This document shows positions 1 through 15,411 of a stretch of 17,400 bases of DNA, piece by piece; within the stretch, counting starts at the first letter, position 1; every line of letters begins with the position of its first letter. The stretch is from IMG/VR virus record IMGVR_UViG_2802429221_000010; one strand, given 5' to 3'. A model generated the notes under the pieces. The model had not been told where the DNA came from. It saw only the letters and a program-made list of their open reading frames with translations, and did not search any database. The stretch comes from a virus. Its lineage: Duplodnaviria > Heunggongvirae > Uroviricota > Caudoviricetes. The position numbers were made by a program, and so were the translations under genes.

Positions 1-1215
1 ATGCTGCTTTCAGACCTTGCTATCAGACGCGCGAAGCCGAAAGAAAAGGCTTATACGCTCAATGACGGTAACGGGCTTTCGTTACTCATTGAGCCGAACG
101 GCTCGAAAGGGTGGCGACTACGTTACAGGTTTGCAGGAAAGCCCAAAATGTTGTCATTGGGCGTGTACCCTGATGTGTCTCTGTCTGATGCCAGGGCGGC
201 AAGGGATGAGGCTAAAAGGCTTCTTGCTGGTGGTATAAATCCAAGTGAGGCCAGAAAAGCCCAAAAGCGAGAACAGGCGAGCAAATTTGGCAATACTTTT
301 GAGGGTATCGCTCGCGAATGGTACGAAAAGCGGATCGACAGGTGGTCATCGTCATACGCCGAGGAAATGATCGAGACGTTTGAAAAAGACGTTTTTCCGT
401 ACATTGGCGGTAGGCCGATCGCAGAAATTAAGCCGATGGAATTGCTGGCGGTTCTTTCCCGTCTTAATGACCGTGGTGCGACTGAAAAATTGCGTAAGGT
501 TCGCCAGCGATGTGGCGAGGTGTTCCGGTACGCAATCATCACCGGACGCGCCGAATATAATCCAGCCCCTGACCTGGTGAGCGCATTTGCTCCACATAAA
601 AAAGAGCATTACGCCTATCTGAAGGCCGACGAACTGCCGGAATTTTTCCGCGTTTTTAATACGTACACCGGAAGCCAGATCGTCAAACTGGCAATGCGGC
701 TATTAATTCTGACAGGTGTCAGACCCGGGGAATTACGGCAGGCAGAATGGCGGGAGATCGATTTTGATAATCGTTTGTGGGAAGTGCCTAAAGAACGAAT
801 GAAGATGCGCCGTCCGCATTGTGTGCCATTACCAGAACAGGCGATAAAAATACTGGAGCAGTTAAAAAACATGACAGGCCAGTATCAGTTTATTTTCCCC
901 GGTCGTATTCACCACAGTAAGCCAATGAGTGAAATGGCGATGAATGTACTCATTCGTCGTATTGGCTACGCCGGGCGCGTCACTGGTCATGGATTCCGGC
1001 ACACCATGAGCACCATTTTGCATGAACAGGGCTATAACACTGCGTGGATAGAAACACAGCTTGCGCATGTTGATAAAAACTCAATTCGTGGCACGTACAA
1101 CCATGCGCAATATCTGGATGGTCGCCGGGAAATGCTCCAGTGGTACGCCGACTATATGGATTCGCTTGAGCATGGCGGAAATGTTGTTTACATAAAATCT
1201 GAAAAATTAAATTGA
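1..1215 (+). CDS. int: Tyrosine site-specific integrase, P4-type (phage integrase family)
   Basis: 404-aa ORF. N-terminal stretch LSDLAIRRAKPKEKAYTLNDGNGLSLLIEPNGSKGWRLRYRF matches the P4-type integrase arm-binding domain. C-terminal catalytic box GHGFRHT (H-x-x-R) plus downstream Tyr (TYNHAQY). ORF starts at window position 1, so the true start could lie upstream. Confidence 0.93.
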   Translation: MLLSDLAIRRAKPKEKAYTLNDGNGLSLLIEPNGSKGWRLRYRFAGKPKMLSLGVYPDVSLSDARAARDEAKRLLAGGINPSEARKAQKREQASKFGNTFEGIAREWYEKRIDRWSSSYAEEMIETFEKDVFPYIGGRPIAEIKPMELLAVLSRLNDRGATEKLRKVRQRCGEVFRYAIITGRAEYNPAPDLVSAFAPHKKEHYAYLKADELPEFFRVFNTYTGSQIVKLAMRLLILTGVRPGELRQAEWREIDFDNRLWEVPKERMKMRRPHCVPLPEQAIKILEQLKNMTGQYQFIFPGRIHHSKPMSEMAMNVLIRRIGYAGRVTGHGFRHTMSTILHEQGYNTAWIETQLAHVDKNSIRGTYNHAQYLDGRREMLQWYADYMDSLEHGGNVVYIKSEKLN

Positions 1216-1245
1216 TTACATTGATATTCTTATATAGGTGATATC

Positions 1246-2154
1246 ATGCTTCCTGAAAGATTGTTTTACACTCTGAATAAAGCAGCTTTTGAGATAAATA
1301 GAGATGTTTATGATTTATTTCACTATATATCAATCGGAATGGTTGATGTAGCAATAAATATAGACTTGTCAGATCTTATTGAAGAAGGAAGGGTCTCTGT
1401 TCGTGGTAAATTTAATAAAGAAATATTTACTAATACAAGAAGTAAAAAATTCAGACATCGCTCTAACTATGCAAAAATAAGTGAAGTTATTAGTTGCGAA
1501 TCTAATGGAAAGTTAAAACATAGAAAAGTCATTAAGGCATGTGGTCTTTTTTCTGTCCGAACATCCAATCTTTTTAAGATGGATGCTGATTTTGATAACG
1601 TGAAAGAATTTGTTGTTGATAGGCTATATCCAGTGAGGCTTCCATCTTTTACGCACTATAACTTGGAGGATTATAACCCACGAGTAATTTTAATTGATGG
1701 TGGTATAAATATTAAAACAAGCGATTTAGTTATAACTAAAAGTGAATTATTTTTGCTTAAAAATGGTGGAGTGACAATAAATTGGAGATTAAACCAAGTC
1801 AAATCATCTATGGATAAGTATCCCGATTTTATTAAAAGTAAAATGGATGGGGGAAATTCACGTAGTTGCGAAACAATTAACAAAATGGTGGGTAAGCCTA
1901 GAAATATCTATCGAAATGTTATTGTTGATGTAGCGAAAGCTACTCGTATTTCTTATCCGTGGAGCCATACGACATTAATTATCAATAAAATACACTCCTT
2001 GCTTTATTCTGTTGATGCTGTTAATACACCTAAAGTAGGTACAATTAGAAATATTCTTTGTTCAGAAGGAATTGGCAAAACAGGAGTGGAAACAAAAGAT
2101 GATTTCCGCTTGGTTATCCCAGAGGAGTACAGAAAATTATTTAAATTGAATTAA
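1246..2154 (+). CDS. Hypothetical protein, 302 aa, AT-rich orphan gene; function unknown (candidate cargo)
   Basis: Stop-bounded ORF with AGGTGA Shine-Dalgarno 4 nt before the ATG, 30 bp after the int stop. Visibly AT-rich (roughly one-third GC by eye) against about 50% GC in int and alpA. No motif recognised. Confidence 0.6.
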   Translation: MLPERLFYTLNKAAFEINRDVYDLFHYISIGMVDVAINIDLSDLIEEGRVSVRGKFNKEIFTNTRSKKFRHRSNYAKISEVISCESNGKLKHRKVIKACGLFSVRTSNLFKMDADFDNVKEFVVDRLYPVRLPSFTHYNLEDYNPRVILIDGGINIKTSDLVITKSELFLLKNGGVTINWRLNQVKSSMDKYPDFIKSKMDGGNSRSCETINKMVGKPRNIYRNVIVDVAKATRISYPWSHTTLIINKIHSLLYSVDAVNTPKVGTIRNILCSEGIGKTGVETKDDFRLVIPEEYRKLFKLN

Positions 2155-2252
2155 ATTGTATTTAATTTAAATTTTAATATTTAATTTAAAAAATACATCC
2201 TTCTCTTGTGTATATTCCAGAAACAGACTTTTATATGCATCAGGAGAAGTGT

Positions 2253-2453
2253 ATGGATAAGCAAAATTTAATTCGTATGCCAGAAACCATGCGCCGTACA
2301 GGCTATGGTAGGGCATGGATCTATAAACTCATTGCCCAAGGGCGTTTTCCTAAACCTGTAAAAATTGGCTCGCGAGCGATTGCTTTCGTTGAGAGTGAAA
2401 TTGATGAGTGGATTAATCAGCGTATTGCGGAATCACGCGGAACAGCTACCTGA
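2253..2453 (+). CDS. alpA: AlpA-family transcriptional regulator / excisionase-like HTH protein
   Basis: Translation LIRMPETMRRTGYGRAWIYKLI...IAFVESEIDEWINQR parallels E. coli AlpA (ILRLPAVIQKTGMARATIYDWL...VGWIEAEIDEWLSQR). AGGAGA Shine-Dalgarno precedes the ATG at 2253; the ORF track start at 2208 lacks one. Confidence 0.85.
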   Translation: MDKQNLIRMPETMRRTGYGRAWIYKLIAQGRFPKPVKIGSRAIAFVESEIDEWINQRIAESRGTAT

Positions 2454-2531: not shown

Positions 2532-3332
2532 ATGAAACTGCGAAAAACGCCCGTACAGGGGCAGGGCTTCGTTCGGCCTGAAAACCAGAATCTGCAAAAT
2601 TTCGGCGAAATTATCCCGATTATTTCCGGCGTTATTGGCGGGAGTGAAACCACTATTGTTAGCGCCAGAGCGTTACATAAGGCGTTAGGTGTAGGGCGCG
2701 TTTTCCGTTCGTGGATCAAGGGGCGCATTGAAGAATACGGGTTCACGGAAGGCGTGGATTATGAGGTTGTTGAATATTTGAGCCGACCCGATCCGGTGAG
2801 CGCAAAATCTCGCCAGCAAACCGCTCTTGAGTACATCATCACAGTGAACATGGCAAAAGAACTGGCGATGGTCGAACGCACCGAACAGGGCCGCGCCGTT
2901 CGTCAGTACTTCATCAAATGCGAGGAGGAGCTACACAAGGTAGCGCCAGTGCGTTCCGCAGCGTTACGCCGGGAACTGAAAGCCCGTATCACAGTTGCCA
3001 GCTACTTTAAGCCAATGTGTGCCGCGTTGGAGGCGTACCGGGCTGAACTGGGTAAAAACACGTTCCAGCACCACTACACCACGGAAGCCAATATGCTGGC
3101 GCGTATCGTGCTGGGTGGCATGACTGCAAAACAGTGGGCGCAGGCGAACGGCATCACAGGCGAACCACGCGACCACATGAGCACGTTGCAGCTTGAGCAC
3201 CTTTCTTACCTTGAGCAGAGCAATATCACGCTGATTGAGTTAGGCCTGGACTACCACCAGCGGAAAGCTGAATTAATTCGTCTTTCGCAGCGTTGGTTAG
3301 CCCGTCGCATGGAGGAAAACAGCCATGTGTAA
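2532..3332 (+). CDS. Phage antirepressor-like protein (AntA/AntB-type N-terminal domain)
   Basis: 266-aa ORF with AGGAG Shine-Dalgarno. Segment SARALHKALGVGRVFRSWIKGRIEEYGFTEGVDYEV resembles the AntA-family core. Domain assignment is from memory, not a search. Confidence 0.65.
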   Translation: MKLRKTPVQGQGFVRPENQNLQNFGEIIPIISGVIGGSETTIVSARALHKALGVGRVFRSWIKGRIEEYGFTEGVDYEVVEYLSRPDPVSAKSRQQTALEYIITVNMAKELAMVERTEQGRAVRQYFIKCEEELHKVAPVRSAALRRELKARITVASYFKPMCAALEAYRAELGKNTFQHHYTTEANMLARIVLGGMTAKQWAQANGITGEPRDHMSTLQLEHLSYLEQSNITLIELGLDYHQRKAELIRLSQRWLARRMEENSHV

Positions 3333-4863
3333 CGCTCTGACCGTTACAAAAAGAGAAAGCGCCCCGTTGCCGGAGCGCCTTTGTGAACGAATAGCCTACT
3401 GCGCCATATTGCTTACTGTCTACGAGGCAGATTATAGCGTTGTGGTCGCACAGAGTGAAGGCGCTGATCACCGTTACTACAGCACGCCAGAAATGCAGAA
3501 TATTTTGCTGCAAAATGTCGTTGGTCACGCTGTCCGGAAAGCAAAAAATTTTGCTGGTAGCGCGACTGATGCGATTTTGTCAGGTCGCCAGGTGATGATC
3601 AATCTGATGTCTAATTTCGTTCTGGATAAAACAAAGGCGACCGCAGAGGGCCACCAGTGGGAAAGCTACACACTTGAACACATCGCCAACAATGCCAGAT
3701 TTGCGGCTGGTGGGCAATGTGATCAGTGTGCTGGCTTGCTGGTGGGCTATTCCTGCTCTTTAACATTGCCATGCCGCGATGTTTTCCAGGTATGCGACCC
3801 CATTTTTGTGCGCCTGTACTCTTTAAGGAATTTCTCAAGGATAAACGCACAGGGCGCGAATCTGTCTGACTCATATTCGTACGCTATCTTTCTGCGCTGT
3901 CTTTTCCGTGCCGGTGATGGTGTATTGGTTGATTCTTTGTTGGTCATTCTGTGTACCTGTAAAGCAATGCGCCGGAGTTCCTCACACCACGGCGATGATA
4001 GTTATTATTCTGATTCTTTGGCCTTGCGGCGCTGGAGTTCTTCACGTGCGACGGTGACGAGTTGCCCGATCTCCTCGACAGCTTTGACTCCGATTTTTTC
4101 CACCTGCGCCAGTGCATTGAGCGAAGAAACCAGGGGATTTTCTCCGCTTCCTTCTGCCTGGCGGCGGGCGATCTCACCACGCATGGCGGTTACTATGAAT
4201 CCGGCGTTGCTTTCGCCGTCCAGTTTTACGGATTCCATGCCTTCAAAAGCATCATGTGGGATACGAATTGAAATCTGTTTTGATTTGTCGTTGATAGTGT
4301 TTTTTGCCATGTGCATTCTCCTAAACAAAAGATGTGATTCAGTATACACAAAAAAGAATCACAAAAAATACTTGACCTGTGATTCAGTTAAATTTAATTT
4401 AAATCACACCTCAGTAAGAGGATGTAAACGACAACGCCCCGAACTGTTTGCGGCAGTAGCGGGGCGTCTAACCAAACCGTTAAATGAGGTAACGATTATG
4501 GCTGGGGCACAGCATACCCAAACTCACCCTAAATTTATATACACCTTCCTGGCGGTGCACCGTGATTGCATGGCTGACGGTAAAAACACTGTTCATGTAG
4601 CCGCCGATACGCTGGTTGATGCCTGCGAGATGCTCAATGACATGGGCTATATCTCGGCAACATGGAAAGGGCGCGAAGAAAACACGTTGTTTATTCAGAA
4701 ATGCGAAAACAATTTTATCTGGCGTTTTATCGCCCTGAGTACGGCACAACCGCGCGTGATTCACATCGAGGCCACCAGCGAACAGGAAGCACGCCAGCAA
4801 TCTCCTGATGGCTGCGTGATGGTATTCGCTGCCCATATTCGCCAGGAGGTGGAGCATGTGTAA
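3325..4863 (+). CDS. ORF of uncertain extent: translationally coupled start, plausible coding N-terminus, remainder probably not a real 512-aa protein
   Basis: ATG at 3325 overlaps the upstream stop (ccATGTGTAAcg). First roughly 120-160 codons have protein-like composition. From about 3800 the translation turns Ser/Cys/Arg-rich and low-complexity, runs antisense through the RHH-like gene (4005-4310) and its operator region, and ends in frame with the better-supported start at 4498. Confidence 0.25.
   Translation: MCNALTVTKRESAPLPERLCERIAYCAILLTVYEADYSVVVAQSEGADHRYYSTPEMQNILLQNVVGHAVRKAKNFAGSATDAILSGRQVMINLMSNFVLDKTKATAEGHQWESYTLEHIANNARFAAGGQCDQCAGLLVGYSCSLTLPCRDVFQVCDPIFVRLYSLRNFSRINAQGANLSDSYSYAIFLRCLFRAGDGVLVDSLLVILCTCKAMRRSSSHHGDDSYYSDSLALRRWSSSRATVTSCPISSTALTPIFSTCASALSEETRGFSPLPSAWRRAISPRMAVTMNPALLSPSSFTDSMPSKASCGIRIEICFDLSLIVFFAMCILLNKRCDSVYTKKNHKKYLTCDSVKFNLNHTSVRGCKRQRPELFAAVAGRLTKPLNEVTIMAGAQHTQTHPKFIYTFLAVHRDCMADGKNTVHVAADTLVDACEMLNDMGYISATWKGREENTLFIQKCENNFIWRFIALSTAQPRVIHIEATSEQEARQQSPDGCVMVFAAHIRQEVEHV
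4005..4310 (-). CDS. Ribbon-helix-helix-like small DNA-binding protein; candidate element repressor
   Basis: Translation MAKNTINDKSKQISIRIPHDAFEGMESVKLDGESNAGFIVTAMRGEI has a beta-strand then helix pattern typical of RHH (CopG/Arc) folds. AGGAGA sits 6 nt before the ATG at 4310 on the minus strand. Divergent from the + strand gene run, with palindromic repeats between. Confidence 0.6.
   Translation of the reverse strand: MAKNTINDKSKQISIRIPHDAFEGMESVKLDGESNAGFIVTAMRGEIARRQAEGSGENPLVSSLNALAQVEKIGVKAVEEIGQLVTVAREELQRRKAKESE
4330..4412. promoter_or_regulatory. Divergent promoter/operator region with TGTGATTC inverted repeats
   Basis: TGTGATTC (4333-4340) and GAATCACA (4355-4362) form one palindrome; TGTGATTCAG (4377-4386) and AATCACA (4402-4408) form a second. 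A TTGACC -35-like hexamer (4371-4376) lies between them, with a possible -10 TAATTT about 17 bp downstream. Confidence 0.45.
4498..4863 (+). CDS. Hypothetical protein, 121 aa
   Basis: ATG at 4498 preceded by GAGGT 7 nt upstream, located downstream of the promoter/operator region. Globular-looking composition. Stop overlaps the next gene's start (gcATGTGTAAtg). Confidence 0.5.
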   Translation: MAGAQHTQTHPKFIYTFLAVHRDCMADGKNTVHVAADTLVDACEMLNDMGYISATWKGREENTLFIQKCENNFIWRFIALSTAQPRVIHIEATSEQEARQQSPDGCVMVFAAHIRQEVEHV

Positions 4864-13424: not shown

Positions 13425-14480
13425 GTGTCTACACAGAAAATTGAAGAAAAATTTACATCTGCACAAGATGCATTAGTAATTCAGCAATCCGATTTATCAT
13501 TAAAGTCACTTTCTGATATGGTTGAATTAGATGCAGTAGATATAAGTCCAAAATATCAGAGAAGGGAGCGTTGGACTGCGGAGAAAGAGTCAAGTTTGAT
13601 TGAATCATTCTTGCTAAACATCCCGGTCCCGCCAATTTATCTCGCAGAGGATAGATATGGAATCTACTCAGTAATAGATGGAAAGCAAAGAATAACGGCT
13701 ATAAATAAATTTTTAACAAATAAAATGAAACTCGTGGAATTAGAAAAATTTCCAGAGTTAGAAGGGTTCTATTTTAAAGACTTACCCCAACCTCTTTCTA
13801 ATGCATTAAGCATCCGACCATATTTAAGAGTGGTCACATTATTGCGCCAATCTGACCCAGACTTAAAGCATGAAGTCTTTCTGAGATTAAATAAAGCAGG
13901 AGTATCTTTAAATTCTCAAGAGATAAGAAATGTTGCTTTTAGAGGGGATTTAAATGATGCTCTTATTGAACTGTCGGATACTCCATTTTTAAAAGAAATG
14001 CTTAAATCAAATAAAAATACTAAAATTTACCAAGAAATGGGAGATGTTCAGTTTGTGTTGAGGTTTTTTACTGTGTTTGATTTGTGGGAAAATTTTCCAG
14101 GTAATATGGATAAAGCTATGGATCTATTTATGGCGAAAAAATCTCGCAGCTCAATTCAAGATGTTAACGAAATGAAGCGGTTATTTTTGCGCTCAATTCA
14201 TTTTTGCGAGACGGTGTGGGGTAATGATGCATACAAAAGAATTGATAACAGTCAACGCGTAATTCAAGGTATGTATGATGTCCAGATGGTTTGCCCTGCC
14301 TTTTTACAACAAAATGAATATGATCATGCCATGGAAAATGCTGCTGATGTAAGACGACTCTTAGTTGATGAACTTTCAAATAATGCGGATTTTCTTGAAT
14401 CAGTGACTCAGTTCACGTCTAACCCAAGAAATATTGCATATAGAATATCACACTTCTGTGACCTTCTGAGAAGAATTTAA
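13425..14480 (+). CDS. DUF262-domain protein (ParB/Srx-like NTP-binding domain as in GmrSD-type enzymes N-termini)
   Basis: GTG start with AAGGG 7 nt upstream. N-terminal motif ISPKYQRRERW (13548-13580) fits the DUF262 P-x-(F/Y)-Q-R...W box; DGKQRITA (13677-13700) fits the DGQQR box. AT-rich. Stop TAA 14478-14480 lies 1 nt before the next ATG. Confidence 0.85.
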   Translation: MSTQKIEEKFTSAQDALVIQQSDLSLKSLSDMVELDAVDISPKYQRRERWTAEKESSLIESFLLNIPVPPIYLAEDRYGIYSVIDGKQRITAINKFLTNKMKLVELEKFPELEGFYFKDLPQPLSNALSIRPYLRVVTLLRQSDPDLKHEVFLRLNKAGVSLNSQEIRNVAFRGDLNDALIELSDTPFLKEMLKSNKNTKIYQEMGDVQFVLRFFTVFDLWENFPGNMDKAMDLFMAKKSRSSIQDVNEMKRLFLRSIHFCETVWGNDAYKRIDNSQRVIQGMYDVQMVCPAFLQQNEYDHAMENAADVRRLLVDELSNNADFLESVTQFTSNPRNIAYRISHFCDLLRRI

Positions 14481-14481
14481 T

Positions 14482-15411
14482 ATGCCTATTCCAGCGAAGG
14501 ACAATTTGCTAAAAAGAATCCTGTCTGTAGATAATGCAACTCAACTACCAGCACTTATCGATAAAGATGTTATGCAGGAACAACACAATATCACAGCTAA
14601 TCTTCTGAGAAAAGGCTTAGGTATAGTAGCATTTAATATTCTGGAAGATTTTATAAAATCCAGAACTATAGAAATGTTTGATTTTATATCTAATGCACGT
14701 GTGAGATTCGAGCAGTTACCCGATTCTTTTAGAATTGCAGCAACAAATGGTGCATTAAGAGGATTAGTATATCAGGCTGGATTAGAAAAGAAAAATAATG
14801 GAGATTGGTTGGCACTAATACATTCTGAGGCCAAAAGTATTTTTTCAACGTCGCAATTTCCTTATACATTATCTCGAGTATCACTTCTTTCAGATGGTTC
14901 TAATGTTGGACATGATGATATACCAGAAGTAATGAAGTGTCTTGATATAACTGGTGGGTGGAAGACATTACAAAAAATATCGAACGATATTGGTGGTGGT
15001 ACATTAGATCTGAATGCTGCTTATAAAAATATGTTTTTCGATAGAAATAGATGTGCTCATGAAGCAGGTTTTAATTATCCATATACCTCTCTCGATAATT
15101 CTTTAAATGACATTGTTACTATTGCTTCTGCATTTGACATAGCGTTAACTACTCGTTGCAGGTATATAGAAAAACAACCTAATTTACCGCTTTCAGCTCA
15201 TAAAGAAAAAGATCCGTTTTCATATCGGTTTTTAATCGCTGATGGAGATGTTTTTCGAGAGAAAAAATCATTAGAACCTGGTGCGAAAACAATAAAAAAA
15301 TGGAGTAATATCTCTGATGCACAATCTAATTTAATTCCTAAGCTAAGACTCCGCGATGAGTTTTTGATTTATATAGGAAAACAGAGAAGGCTTAGTGATT
15401 GGTATTTGTGA
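14482..15411 (+). CDS. Hypothetical protein, 309 aa, with a HEPN-like R-x4-H motif; partner of the DUF262 gene
   Basis: Tightly coupled to the DUF262 gene (TAAtATG). Contains FDRNRCAHEAG (R-x4-H at 15043-15060), compatible with a HEPN RNase active site. No DUF1524/HNH-like (D/E)H-x-x-P motif seen. AT-rich. Confidence 0.75.
   Translation: MPIPAKDNLLKRILSVDNATQLPALIDKDVMQEQHNITANLLRKGLGIVAFNILEDFIKSRTIEMFDFISNARVRFEQLPDSFRIAATNGALRGLVYQAGLEKKNNGDWLALIHSEAKSIFSTSQFPYTLSRVSLLSDGSNVGHDDIPEVMKCLDITGGWKTLQKISNDIGGGTLDLNAAYKNMFFDRNRCAHEAGFNYPYTSLDNSLNDIVTIASAFDIALTTRCRYIEKQPNLPLSAHKEKDPFSYRFLIADGDVFREKKSLEPGAKTIKKWSNISDAQSNLIPKLRLRDEFLIYIGKQRRLSDWYL

Follow-up and report, generated by a model that had tools for sequence, protein, structure and literature searches.

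The locus described here lies at the start of a 17,400-nucleotide stretch of DNA, which was analysed as a whole and is referred to below as the window. Its first gene (int, positions 1-1215, plus strand) encodes a P4-type tyrosine integrase with the Pfam domains Arm-DNA-bind_3, Phage_int_M and Phage_integrase. It is followed on the same strand by an open reading frame of 302 codons, ORF302 (1246-2154), and by alpA (2253-2453; Pfam Phage_AlpA, 1e-19), which encodes the master activator or excisionase-type regulator of the satellite. Next come genes for an AntA-type antirepressor (ant), a 512-aa protein with a C-terminal Icd-like domain, a DUF4222 protein, a D5-type primase-helicase, ProQ/FinO, PerC and a small HTH_17-like protein; after these, an NsnA/GmrSD_N-like gene (PADLOC match at 7e-65) and a HEPN (RiboL-PSP) gene are found at 13425-15411. 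The window is a PICI-type phage satellite. E. coli relatives of the element are integrated at a tRNA-Gly adjoining actS/xdhA, and at more than 15 kb it is not a minimal int-alpA-prim satellite at fis. In Gram-negative phage satellites, alpA drives excision and replication, and the question addressed here is how helper phages switch on alpA.

ORF302, whose place between int and alpA we call the slot, runs from an ATG at 1246 to a TAA at 2152-2154 and encodes 302 aa. The Shine-Dalgarno sequence AGGTGA can be read directly at 1236-1241 on the plus strand. The start codon lies 30 bp after the int stop codon (1213-1215), and 98 bp separate the ORF302 stop from the alpA start. The N-termini of relatives align with this ATG (MLPER.. 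against M[AK]LPER..). An earlier, sequence-only reading of this DNA had noted the frame, its good Shine-Dalgarno sequence and its strong AT-richness relative to its neighbours, and all three observations hold: GC is 0.316 in ORF302, against 0.49 in int and 0.43 in the whole window, and GC3 is 0.23, against 0.51 in int and 0.61 in ant, beyond alpA. At the composition of ORF302, stops make up about 7.6% of random codons, so that, by simple arithmetic, a frame of 302 codons would stay open by chance with a probability of about 4e-11. Relative to the 92%-identical copy in locus L005, ORF302 shows a dN/dS of 0.175, and relative to the L006 copy 0.30; for int, the same pairs give 0.03-0.05. At a dN/dS of 0.18-0.30, ORF302 is a genuine protein-coding gene that is kept under purifying selection and evolves faster than its neighbour int. 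The possibility, raised by the same reading, that the frame carries no coding signal is contradicted by these ratios and by the existence of homologues. Between the int stop and the ORF302 start, no promoter-like or terminator-like site was found on the plus strand; the one terminator-like hairpin, at 1161-1179, falls within the 3' end of int. Co-transcription of ORF302 with int is therefore plausible. A search against Rfam revealed no RNA family in the window.

Comparison of ORF302 with Pfam, NCBIfam, PHROGs, PADLOC and PDB sequences gave no match, and neither did a tblastn search against 50,697 phage genomes. The sequence-only reading recognised no domain in the protein and suggested sensitive profile and structure-based searches; these, too, placed it in no known family by sequence or by fold. 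Profile searches of the PDB with the whole family described below, with its N-terminal module and with three classes of C-terminal modules identified no related structure, the N-module giving chance matches only, and an AF2 model of the whole protein, built with an alignment of 18 family sequences (pLDDT 75.8), has no significant structural neighbour.

The model and the family alignment nevertheless delimit distinct parts of the protein. A conserved N-terminal module (N-module; aa 1-45, 1246-1380, plus strand) bears the motif LPERxFYxLxKAAxxI..DLFHY..G and is predicted to adopt a beta-alpha-alpha-beta, winged-helix-like arrangement, with a weak likeness to the Xis/MerR fold. A kinship of this module with AlpA/HTH_17 was rejected at the level of sequence profiles: hhalign detected no relation to AlpA or to excisionases, with a probability of 0.1% against the AlpAs of the same loci. 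ORF302 also differs from excisionase/MerR winged-helix proteins such as AlpA, TorI, Xis and RdfS in that, at E<=1, the 18 family members have no Pfam match to HTH_17, AlpA or MerR, or to anything else, and in the net charge of its N-module, -4. A beta-rich middle domain (1381-1770, plus strand), with modelled strands at aa 50-157, ends in the family motif DLVITKSELFLLKNGG (aa 160-175, nt 1723-1770), in which I163 is the sole invariant column of alignment A2. After the beta-rich domain (to about aa 157), the model shows DLVITKSELFLL as a helix, and aa 180-220 as a disordered linker. The C-terminal module (C-module; aa 205-302, 1858-2151, plus strand) reads GKPRNIY..ATR..YP..three helices..FRLVIPEEY; the model predicts a three-helix domain at aa 221-273, and we regard this part as a candidate DNA-specificity module. 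The protein is strongly basic, with a net charge of +14 overall and +7 in the C-module, in keeping with the DNA-binding role proposed below. In sequence-profile comparisons, C-modules match no known HTH and no solved structure, and homology between the C-module classes themselves is not detectable.

The ORF302 family and its position next to int

A word-indexed search of 5.8 billion proteins retrieved only two near-identical E. coli clusters, even with the family profile as query. Exhaustive HMMER analysis of 1.84 billion representatives yielded 18 proteins at E<1e-3, some with similarity only over aa 2-200 and some only over aa 200-300; the named hosts are Providencia, Morganella and Gilliamella. 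The C-module of ORF302 is shared by Gilliamella and metagenome proteins (P0006-P0018) whose N-termini differ. The family consensus is M(A)LPERxYYxLxKAAxxL..DLLHY..G in the N-module and DLLIT..EL.LL.NGG in the middle motif, and the C-module in the ORF302 branch follows GKP.N.Y..D.A..TR..YP...FELVIP. We also designed by hand a degenerate DNA pattern of 48 bits for the N-module, which finds one match in the window, with none expected. Run on species-representative genomes, IMG/VR and metagenomes, this pattern uncovered 35 new loci; Buttiauxella, Serratia, Rosenbergiella and Hafnia are the named genomes, and the rest are IMG/VR or metagenome contigs. HMMER and the DNA pattern together give about 40 loci with relatives of ORF302. 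The gene is thus not the orphan that the sequence-only reading had taken it for, but belongs to a sparse family.

The family gene, denoted X below, is located directly 3' of a tyrosine integrase gene in all 30 loci for which upstream sequence is available. The gap between int and X in these loci is most often -4 (an ATGA overlap, 22 loci); it is +4 in two loci, +94 in two others and +30 in the ORF302 group. Wherever alpA can be detected downstream, it is the next gene. The order int-X-alpA on one strand is observed in the window and in the 24 other loci where both neighbours are visible, and a distant Gilliamella relative has the order int-X-alpA-D5 primase. We dropped an argument from a minimal four-gene island in Gilliamella, as the att repeat was not found at the island boundaries. 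The integrases of the family loci are only 26-30% identical to that of the window and their AlpAs 32-34%; identity in the N-module, at 39-51%, is above both. The gene that occupies the same slot in CP4-57 of E. coli K-12, yfjH, encodes a protein unrelated to ORF302 and lies on the opposite strand.

GC content in the family genes is 0.31-0.39, with one at 0.46, while that of the loci is 0.34-0.52, mostly 0.44-0.52. Low GC is found in all family members but one and so characterises the gene class rather than marking a single recent acquisition. The sequence-only reading had seen in the AT-richness a separately acquired moron; base composition does not bear this out, but the gene does lie within a discrete recombinational cassette, from about 1188 to 2267-2298, as described below. 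That reading also set cargo against a gene conserved in all related elements with a syntenic core function. ORF302 itself is not conserved, whereas the slot and its class of genes always occur in the order int-X-alpA.

Many relatives of ORF302 are found in elements linked to fis. In 10 loci of the family, the fis 3'-end repeat TACGGCATGAACTRA precedes int by 100-190 bp, and the fis gene itself lies at the far end of L019 and L021. The L021 element, of about 9.8 kb, is delimited by fis repeats at 123 and 9915. Further loci with the fis motif have the -4 overlap in 14 of 28 junctions. The 15-mer pattern of the fis end proved too unspecific to find Vibrio PICMIs; it revealed the fis link of these enterobacterial relatives.

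Exchange of the slot cassette and its phased repeats

Using the integrase of the window as a query, we collected 80 loci from IMG/VR (64-100% identity). One ORF of 196-355 aa, sometimes split in two, occupies 68 of the 75 int-alpA intervals, with a GC content of 0.30-0.49. The other seven junctions (216-651 bp) have no sizeable ORF, two of them containing only a 46-aa ORF; a slot gene is therefore not universally required. ORF302 occurs in only 2 of the 483 E. coli genomes with the int/alpA/ant backbone. Integrases that are 97-99% identical to one another and act at the same att site come with slot proteins that are unrelated. The slot is thus variable, as the sequence-only reading had proposed should be checked, and near-identical integrases are accompanied by dozens of different proteins.

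Clustering at about 85% identity sorts the 115 slot proteins into 56 clusters, which BLAST links into only three components. The largest, with 95 proteins including ORF302, is a mosaic network in which N- and C-terminal modules have been recombined. Another component corresponds to Pfam DUF6387, whose members (clusters C3, C20 and C31) are found in this slot, between int and alpA, in related elements. DUF6387 was rejected as the family of ORF302, which has no Pfam match and stands in a separate BLAST component.

Comparison with elements whose integrase is 97% identical (L002, L004, L046-L051) delimits the exchanged segment. Homology is lost at window position 1187 and regained at 2267 or 2298, and the integrase ends in ..GGNVVYIKSEKLN in the window and in ..GGNVVHGEFGKCG in the other elements. 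With one break at 1187 and the other inside alpA, the slot gene travels with the entire upstream region of alpA. The exchangeable cassette (1188-2297, plus strand) thus extends from the last nine codons of int, through the slot gene and all of the sequence before alpA, into the first 5-15 alpA codons.

Within this cassette, three phased copies of the repeat TATTTAAWTTRAA (2138-2190, plus strand) start at 2138, 2159 and 2178, that is, at spacings of 21 and 19 bp, the first overlapping the stop codon of ORF302. We consider them putative operator sites. The corresponding pattern, which was derived from the same data as those tested and describes AT-rich repeats of low complexity, has three matches in the window against 0.04 expected and, among 126 loci, is found only in those that bear ORF302. 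The repeats directly after the stop codon of the slot gene differ from one cassette type to the next and are spaced by about two helical turns. Thus L002 contains two copies of a perfect palindrome, ACCGCAATTGCGGT, 21 bp apart, L004-type cassettes contain ACCCTNAGGGT in four to five copies, and fis-type cassettes contain pairs of GTGATATCAC, GGAATATTCC or CGTAATATTACG. Of 47 cluster representatives, 22 have repeats of 11 nt or longer in the X-alpA spacer, against 3.8 +/- 1.9 in shuffled sequences, and a spacing of 20-22 bp is seen in 14 of the 47, against 0.24 in shuffles (maximum 2).

Each class of repeat motif pairs with one C-module class only, while one N-module may occur with several C-modules. 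The AlpA HTH is identical in the window and in L002, but the repeats differ (TATTTAAWTTRAA versus ACCGCAATTGCGGT); likewise, clusters C0 and C7 have a common AlpA, and ACCCTNAGGGT is present only in C0. As judged from these sequence comparisons, the repeats track the C-module of the slot protein and not AlpA. In Gilliamella L007, which has the C-module of ORF302, the same spacer contains two copies of TTATTTAATG exactly 21 bp apart; in DNA as AT-rich as this, the pair is only suggestive of a similar site for the same C-module. Co-variation of C-modules and repeats could also reflect linkage, since the C-module part of the gene physically adjoins the spacer. When repeats were set against the rest of the spacer as a control for linkage, other conserved, alpA-proximal segments were present in the spacer as well.

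Slot genes as iolg/icg genes and their proposed control of alpA

A class of genes between int and alpA is already known, and is known by position only. Work on the Vibrio satellite PICMI115 (Nat Commun 2024, PMC10803314) showed that helper-phage-induced excision depends on int, iolg and alpA; expression of the first two is constitutive, that of alpA is induced by the phage, and complementation of a delta-iolg mutant was done only with int and iolg together. The same paper reports iolg in 21 of 35 PICMI subfamilies, a contiguous icg in four and neither gene in three, and assigns iolg/icg to 13 unrelated families of unknown function, so that homology does not define the class. What places a gene in it is a location between int and alpA on the same strand, with an overlap with int of 1, 4 or 13 nt (iolg, integrase-overlapping gene) or contiguity (icg, integrase-contiguous gene). 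ORF302 has this location (int 1-1215, ORF302 1246-2154, alpA 2253-2453), and its 30-bp gap corresponds to icg.

Other features are shared as well. The ATGA overlap with int, the commonest PICMI arrangement (PMC10803314), recurs in relatives of ORF302; many of these relatives lie in satellites at the 3' end of fis, as PICMIs do; and both sets consist of many unrelated or mosaic families, with few elements lacking the gene. ORF302 relatives, many of them, match iolg genes of fis-integrating, PICMI-like satellites of Enterobacterales, and ORF302 itself, by its position, matches an 'icg' recombined into a tRNA-Gly PICI. The window differs from PICMIs, which are 6-kb elements of Vibrio, in being a larger, PICI-type island of E. 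coli. The class of integrase-overlapping genes thus extends to enterobacterial satellites, where it is modular and where each gene has its own phased repeats before alpA. The shuffling of N- and C-modules and the cassette-specific repeats upstream of alpA, like the ORF302 family, go unmentioned in the available sections of PMC10803314 and in the literature that we searched, in which we also found no follow-up work on iolg. That paper asks what activates the early regulon and in what way AlpA, Int and IOLG work together.

Our reading, to which we give about an even chance, is that the ORF302 product is modular, binds DNA and serves the alpA/excision switch as a regulator or cofactor, and that ORF302 represents one allele of an exchangeable, int-coupled cassette. 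ORF302-type cassettes, of the iolg/icg class, sit at the int-to-alpA junction of AlpA-controlled phage satellites. In the integrated state, the slot gene would be co-transcribed with int. The conserved N-module of its product may make a conserved contact, with Int, AlpA or a host protein as candidate partners; the middle part would be variable, and the C-module would recognise the phased repeats of its own cassette, after the slot gene and upstream of alpA, the presumed target. The protein bound to these repeats would set whether and when alpA is expressed, and expression of alpA would in turn lead to excision and replication of the satellite upon infection by a helper phage. By analogy with the PICMI deletion mutant, which no longer excises, PICMI genetics suggest a positive factor in the control of alpA rather than a repressor. 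Should this model be right, exchange of the cassette would account for a change of helper specificity among near-identical satellites.

More tentatively, and with clearly less chance of being right than wrong, slot proteins at the int-to-alpA junction may constitute the induction switch of AlpA-controlled Gram-negative satellites in general (PICIs, P4-like elements, PICMIs). They would then act as modular sensor-regulators, the exchangeable C-module binding cassette-specific operators at the alpA promoter and the shuffled middle and N-terminal modules sensing a signal from the helper phage or the host. A cassette swap would then re-target which phage induces the satellite, and slot proteins would be analogues, with unrelated folds, of Stl in staphylococcal SaPIs. 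Stl is a master repressor encoded next to int and transcribed divergently, and it diverges strongly between similar satellites. Control of the SaPI activation module is exerted from operators that adjoin the stl gene, and the specificity for helper phages follows from the diversity of Stl. ORF302-type cassettes are likewise adjacent to int and divergent between similar satellites, with candidate operators beside the gene. The two differ in that ORF302 has no sequence or fold relationship to Stl, lacks a recognisable HTH, is not known to bind a phage protein and is co-directional with int and alpA. They differ also in that Stl is a repressor, whereas the phenotype given for delta-iolg in PMC10803314 is a loss of excision.

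Alternatively, ORF302 may have no role in transcription and may instead be part of the complex that Int and AlpA form for excision or integration, as an accessory recombination directionality factor or a chaperone of Int. For IOLG, the PICMI authors proposed an excision complex with Int and AlpA (PMC10803314), and the delta-iolg mutant fails to excise. Coupling of the slot gene to int through ATGA, which implies matched expression of both proteins, the exchange of the C-terminal tail of int along with the slot gene and the weakly Xis/MerR-like predicted fold of the N-module would all fit such a role. The reading is weakened by the pairing of near-identical integrases, acting at the same att site, with unrelated slot proteins. 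Furthermore, about 2.1 kb separates the repeats, which stand directly upstream of alpA, from the att end on the int side, a distance beyond any plausible intasome, and hhalign relates the N-module neither to AlpA nor to excisionases. We therefore hold a role purely at the level of recombination to be unlikely; it is not mutually exclusive with a regulatory role at alpA.

The sequence-only reading had pointed to defence or anti-defence cargo. On such a view, the slot would be a cargo hotspot and ORF302 a stand-alone anti-phage or counter-defence moron, unrelated to the satellite life cycle. The slot indeed resembles the defence hotspots of P4-like satellites and PICIs (Rousset 2022, PMC9122126; Fillol-Salom 2022, via PMC10085698) in being an int-proximal variable region with frequent exchange between near-identical satellite backbones. 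The AT-rich gene is probably co-expressed with int in a lysogen-like state, and EcCIMP1 combines an unexplained superinfection immunity with an uncharacterised gene in this slot (PMC11773190). The hotspots, however, hold recognisable multi-gene defence systems of variable size, whereas the slot nearly always encodes a single protein of about 200-350 aa that belongs to one of a few mosaic superfamilies and is often coupled translationally to int. None of 11 slot types matches any of the 5027 models in PADLOC (PADLOC-DB 2.0: no family at E<=1 for ORF302 and none at E<=0.01 for ten other slot representatives), while the 3' locus of the window is readily recognised as NsnA-like; this defence-like cargo, with its HEPN gene, stands at the opposite end from the int-alpA slot. 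The N-module and the 4-bp coupling to int persist across integrases only 26-30% identical, the cassette includes its own phased repeats and the alpA leader, and excision of PICMI requires iolg (PMC10803314). With strict synteny, no PADLOC match, phased repeats and an iolg needed for excision, we do not favour a defence role and judge it improbable.

The idea that ORF302 is a non-functional or decaying frame, open by chance in AT-rich spacer DNA, could draw on its lack of a known domain and on its highly restricted occurrence, in two 90% clusters from E. coli only, but is effectively refuted by purifying selection, by the length of the frame at 32% GC, by homologues with the same domain order in several genera and by the confident AF2 model that the family alignment gives (pLDDT 76).

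Were the model of a regulator or cofactor of the alpA switch to hold, annotation of the slot would change. At present, slot proteins are annotated as 'hypothetical protein' and, once, as 'protein kinase'.

Sequence signals around alpA and int

In fis-type (fis-integrating, PICMI-like) satellites, a terminator-like hairpin followed by a T-run is conserved immediately 5' of the alpA start codon. We observed it in the spacers between the slot gene and alpA of loci L015, L018, L020, L022, L024, L038 and L042; in L022, for instance, the sequence just upstream of alpA reads ATGCCCTCGAAC..GTTCGAGGGCAT-TTTTTT-ATG. This hairpin suggests that alpA is under attenuation or antitermination control in these satellites. 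The fis-type cassettes also carry an operator-like motif, GTGATATCAC, and the same motif is found in the window as GTGATATCA (1237-1245), directly upstream of the ORF302 ATG, possibly left over from the donor element.

A different signal lies just 3' of int, within the first 60 nt past its stop codon: direct repeats of the form GTAGACT-N3-4-GTAGAC, present in L054, L055, L057, L060, L077, L113 and L122. These loci belong to the integrase clade of the window and hold other slot genes; the repeats are absent from the window's cassette.

Alternative and empty slots

In the E. coli K-12 element CP4-57 (L126), yfjH (318 aa, GC 0.37; 3645-4601, minus strand) lies on the opposite strand, though in the intA-alpA slot, and shows no detectable relation to any slot family found in this analysis. 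The 251-aa slot protein of L002 (WP_438429407.1; 3344-4099) is labelled 'protein kinase' in RefSeq. This label is probably spurious: no Pfam kinase domain was detected in the protein, and its near-identical counterpart in L003 is labelled 'hypothetical protein'. Seven related int-alpA junctions, of 216-651 bp, lack a sizeable slot ORF (L078, L083-L085, L087, L089 and L091), the slots of L083 and L091 containing a 46-aa ORF only.

Gene content downstream of the cassette

The closest E. coli relative of the window, L001 (NZ_CP137737.1, 16001-28000), is 98% identical to it over int-ORF302-alpA-ant, whereas a RepA-family helicase replication module occupies the place of the window's D5 primase, which indicates that modules are shuffled downstream of the cassette. 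The 512-aa ORF at 3325-4863 (plus strand) has an Icd-like cell-division-inhibitor domain that is confined to its last ~50 aa. The Icd-like proteins of related elements stand alone and measure ~120 aa, so the additional sequence here is either a fusion partner or a long extension at the N-terminus.

The match of the E. coli backbone relatives to the window ends at ~13200. The satellite's variable 3' end holds a candidate defence gene pair (13425-15411, plus strand): a DUF262/GmrSD_N protein gene, with PADLOC matches to NsnA (7e-65) and PD-T4-2_A (3.5e-33), and an abutting second gene that encodes a HEPN (RiboL-PSP) protein.
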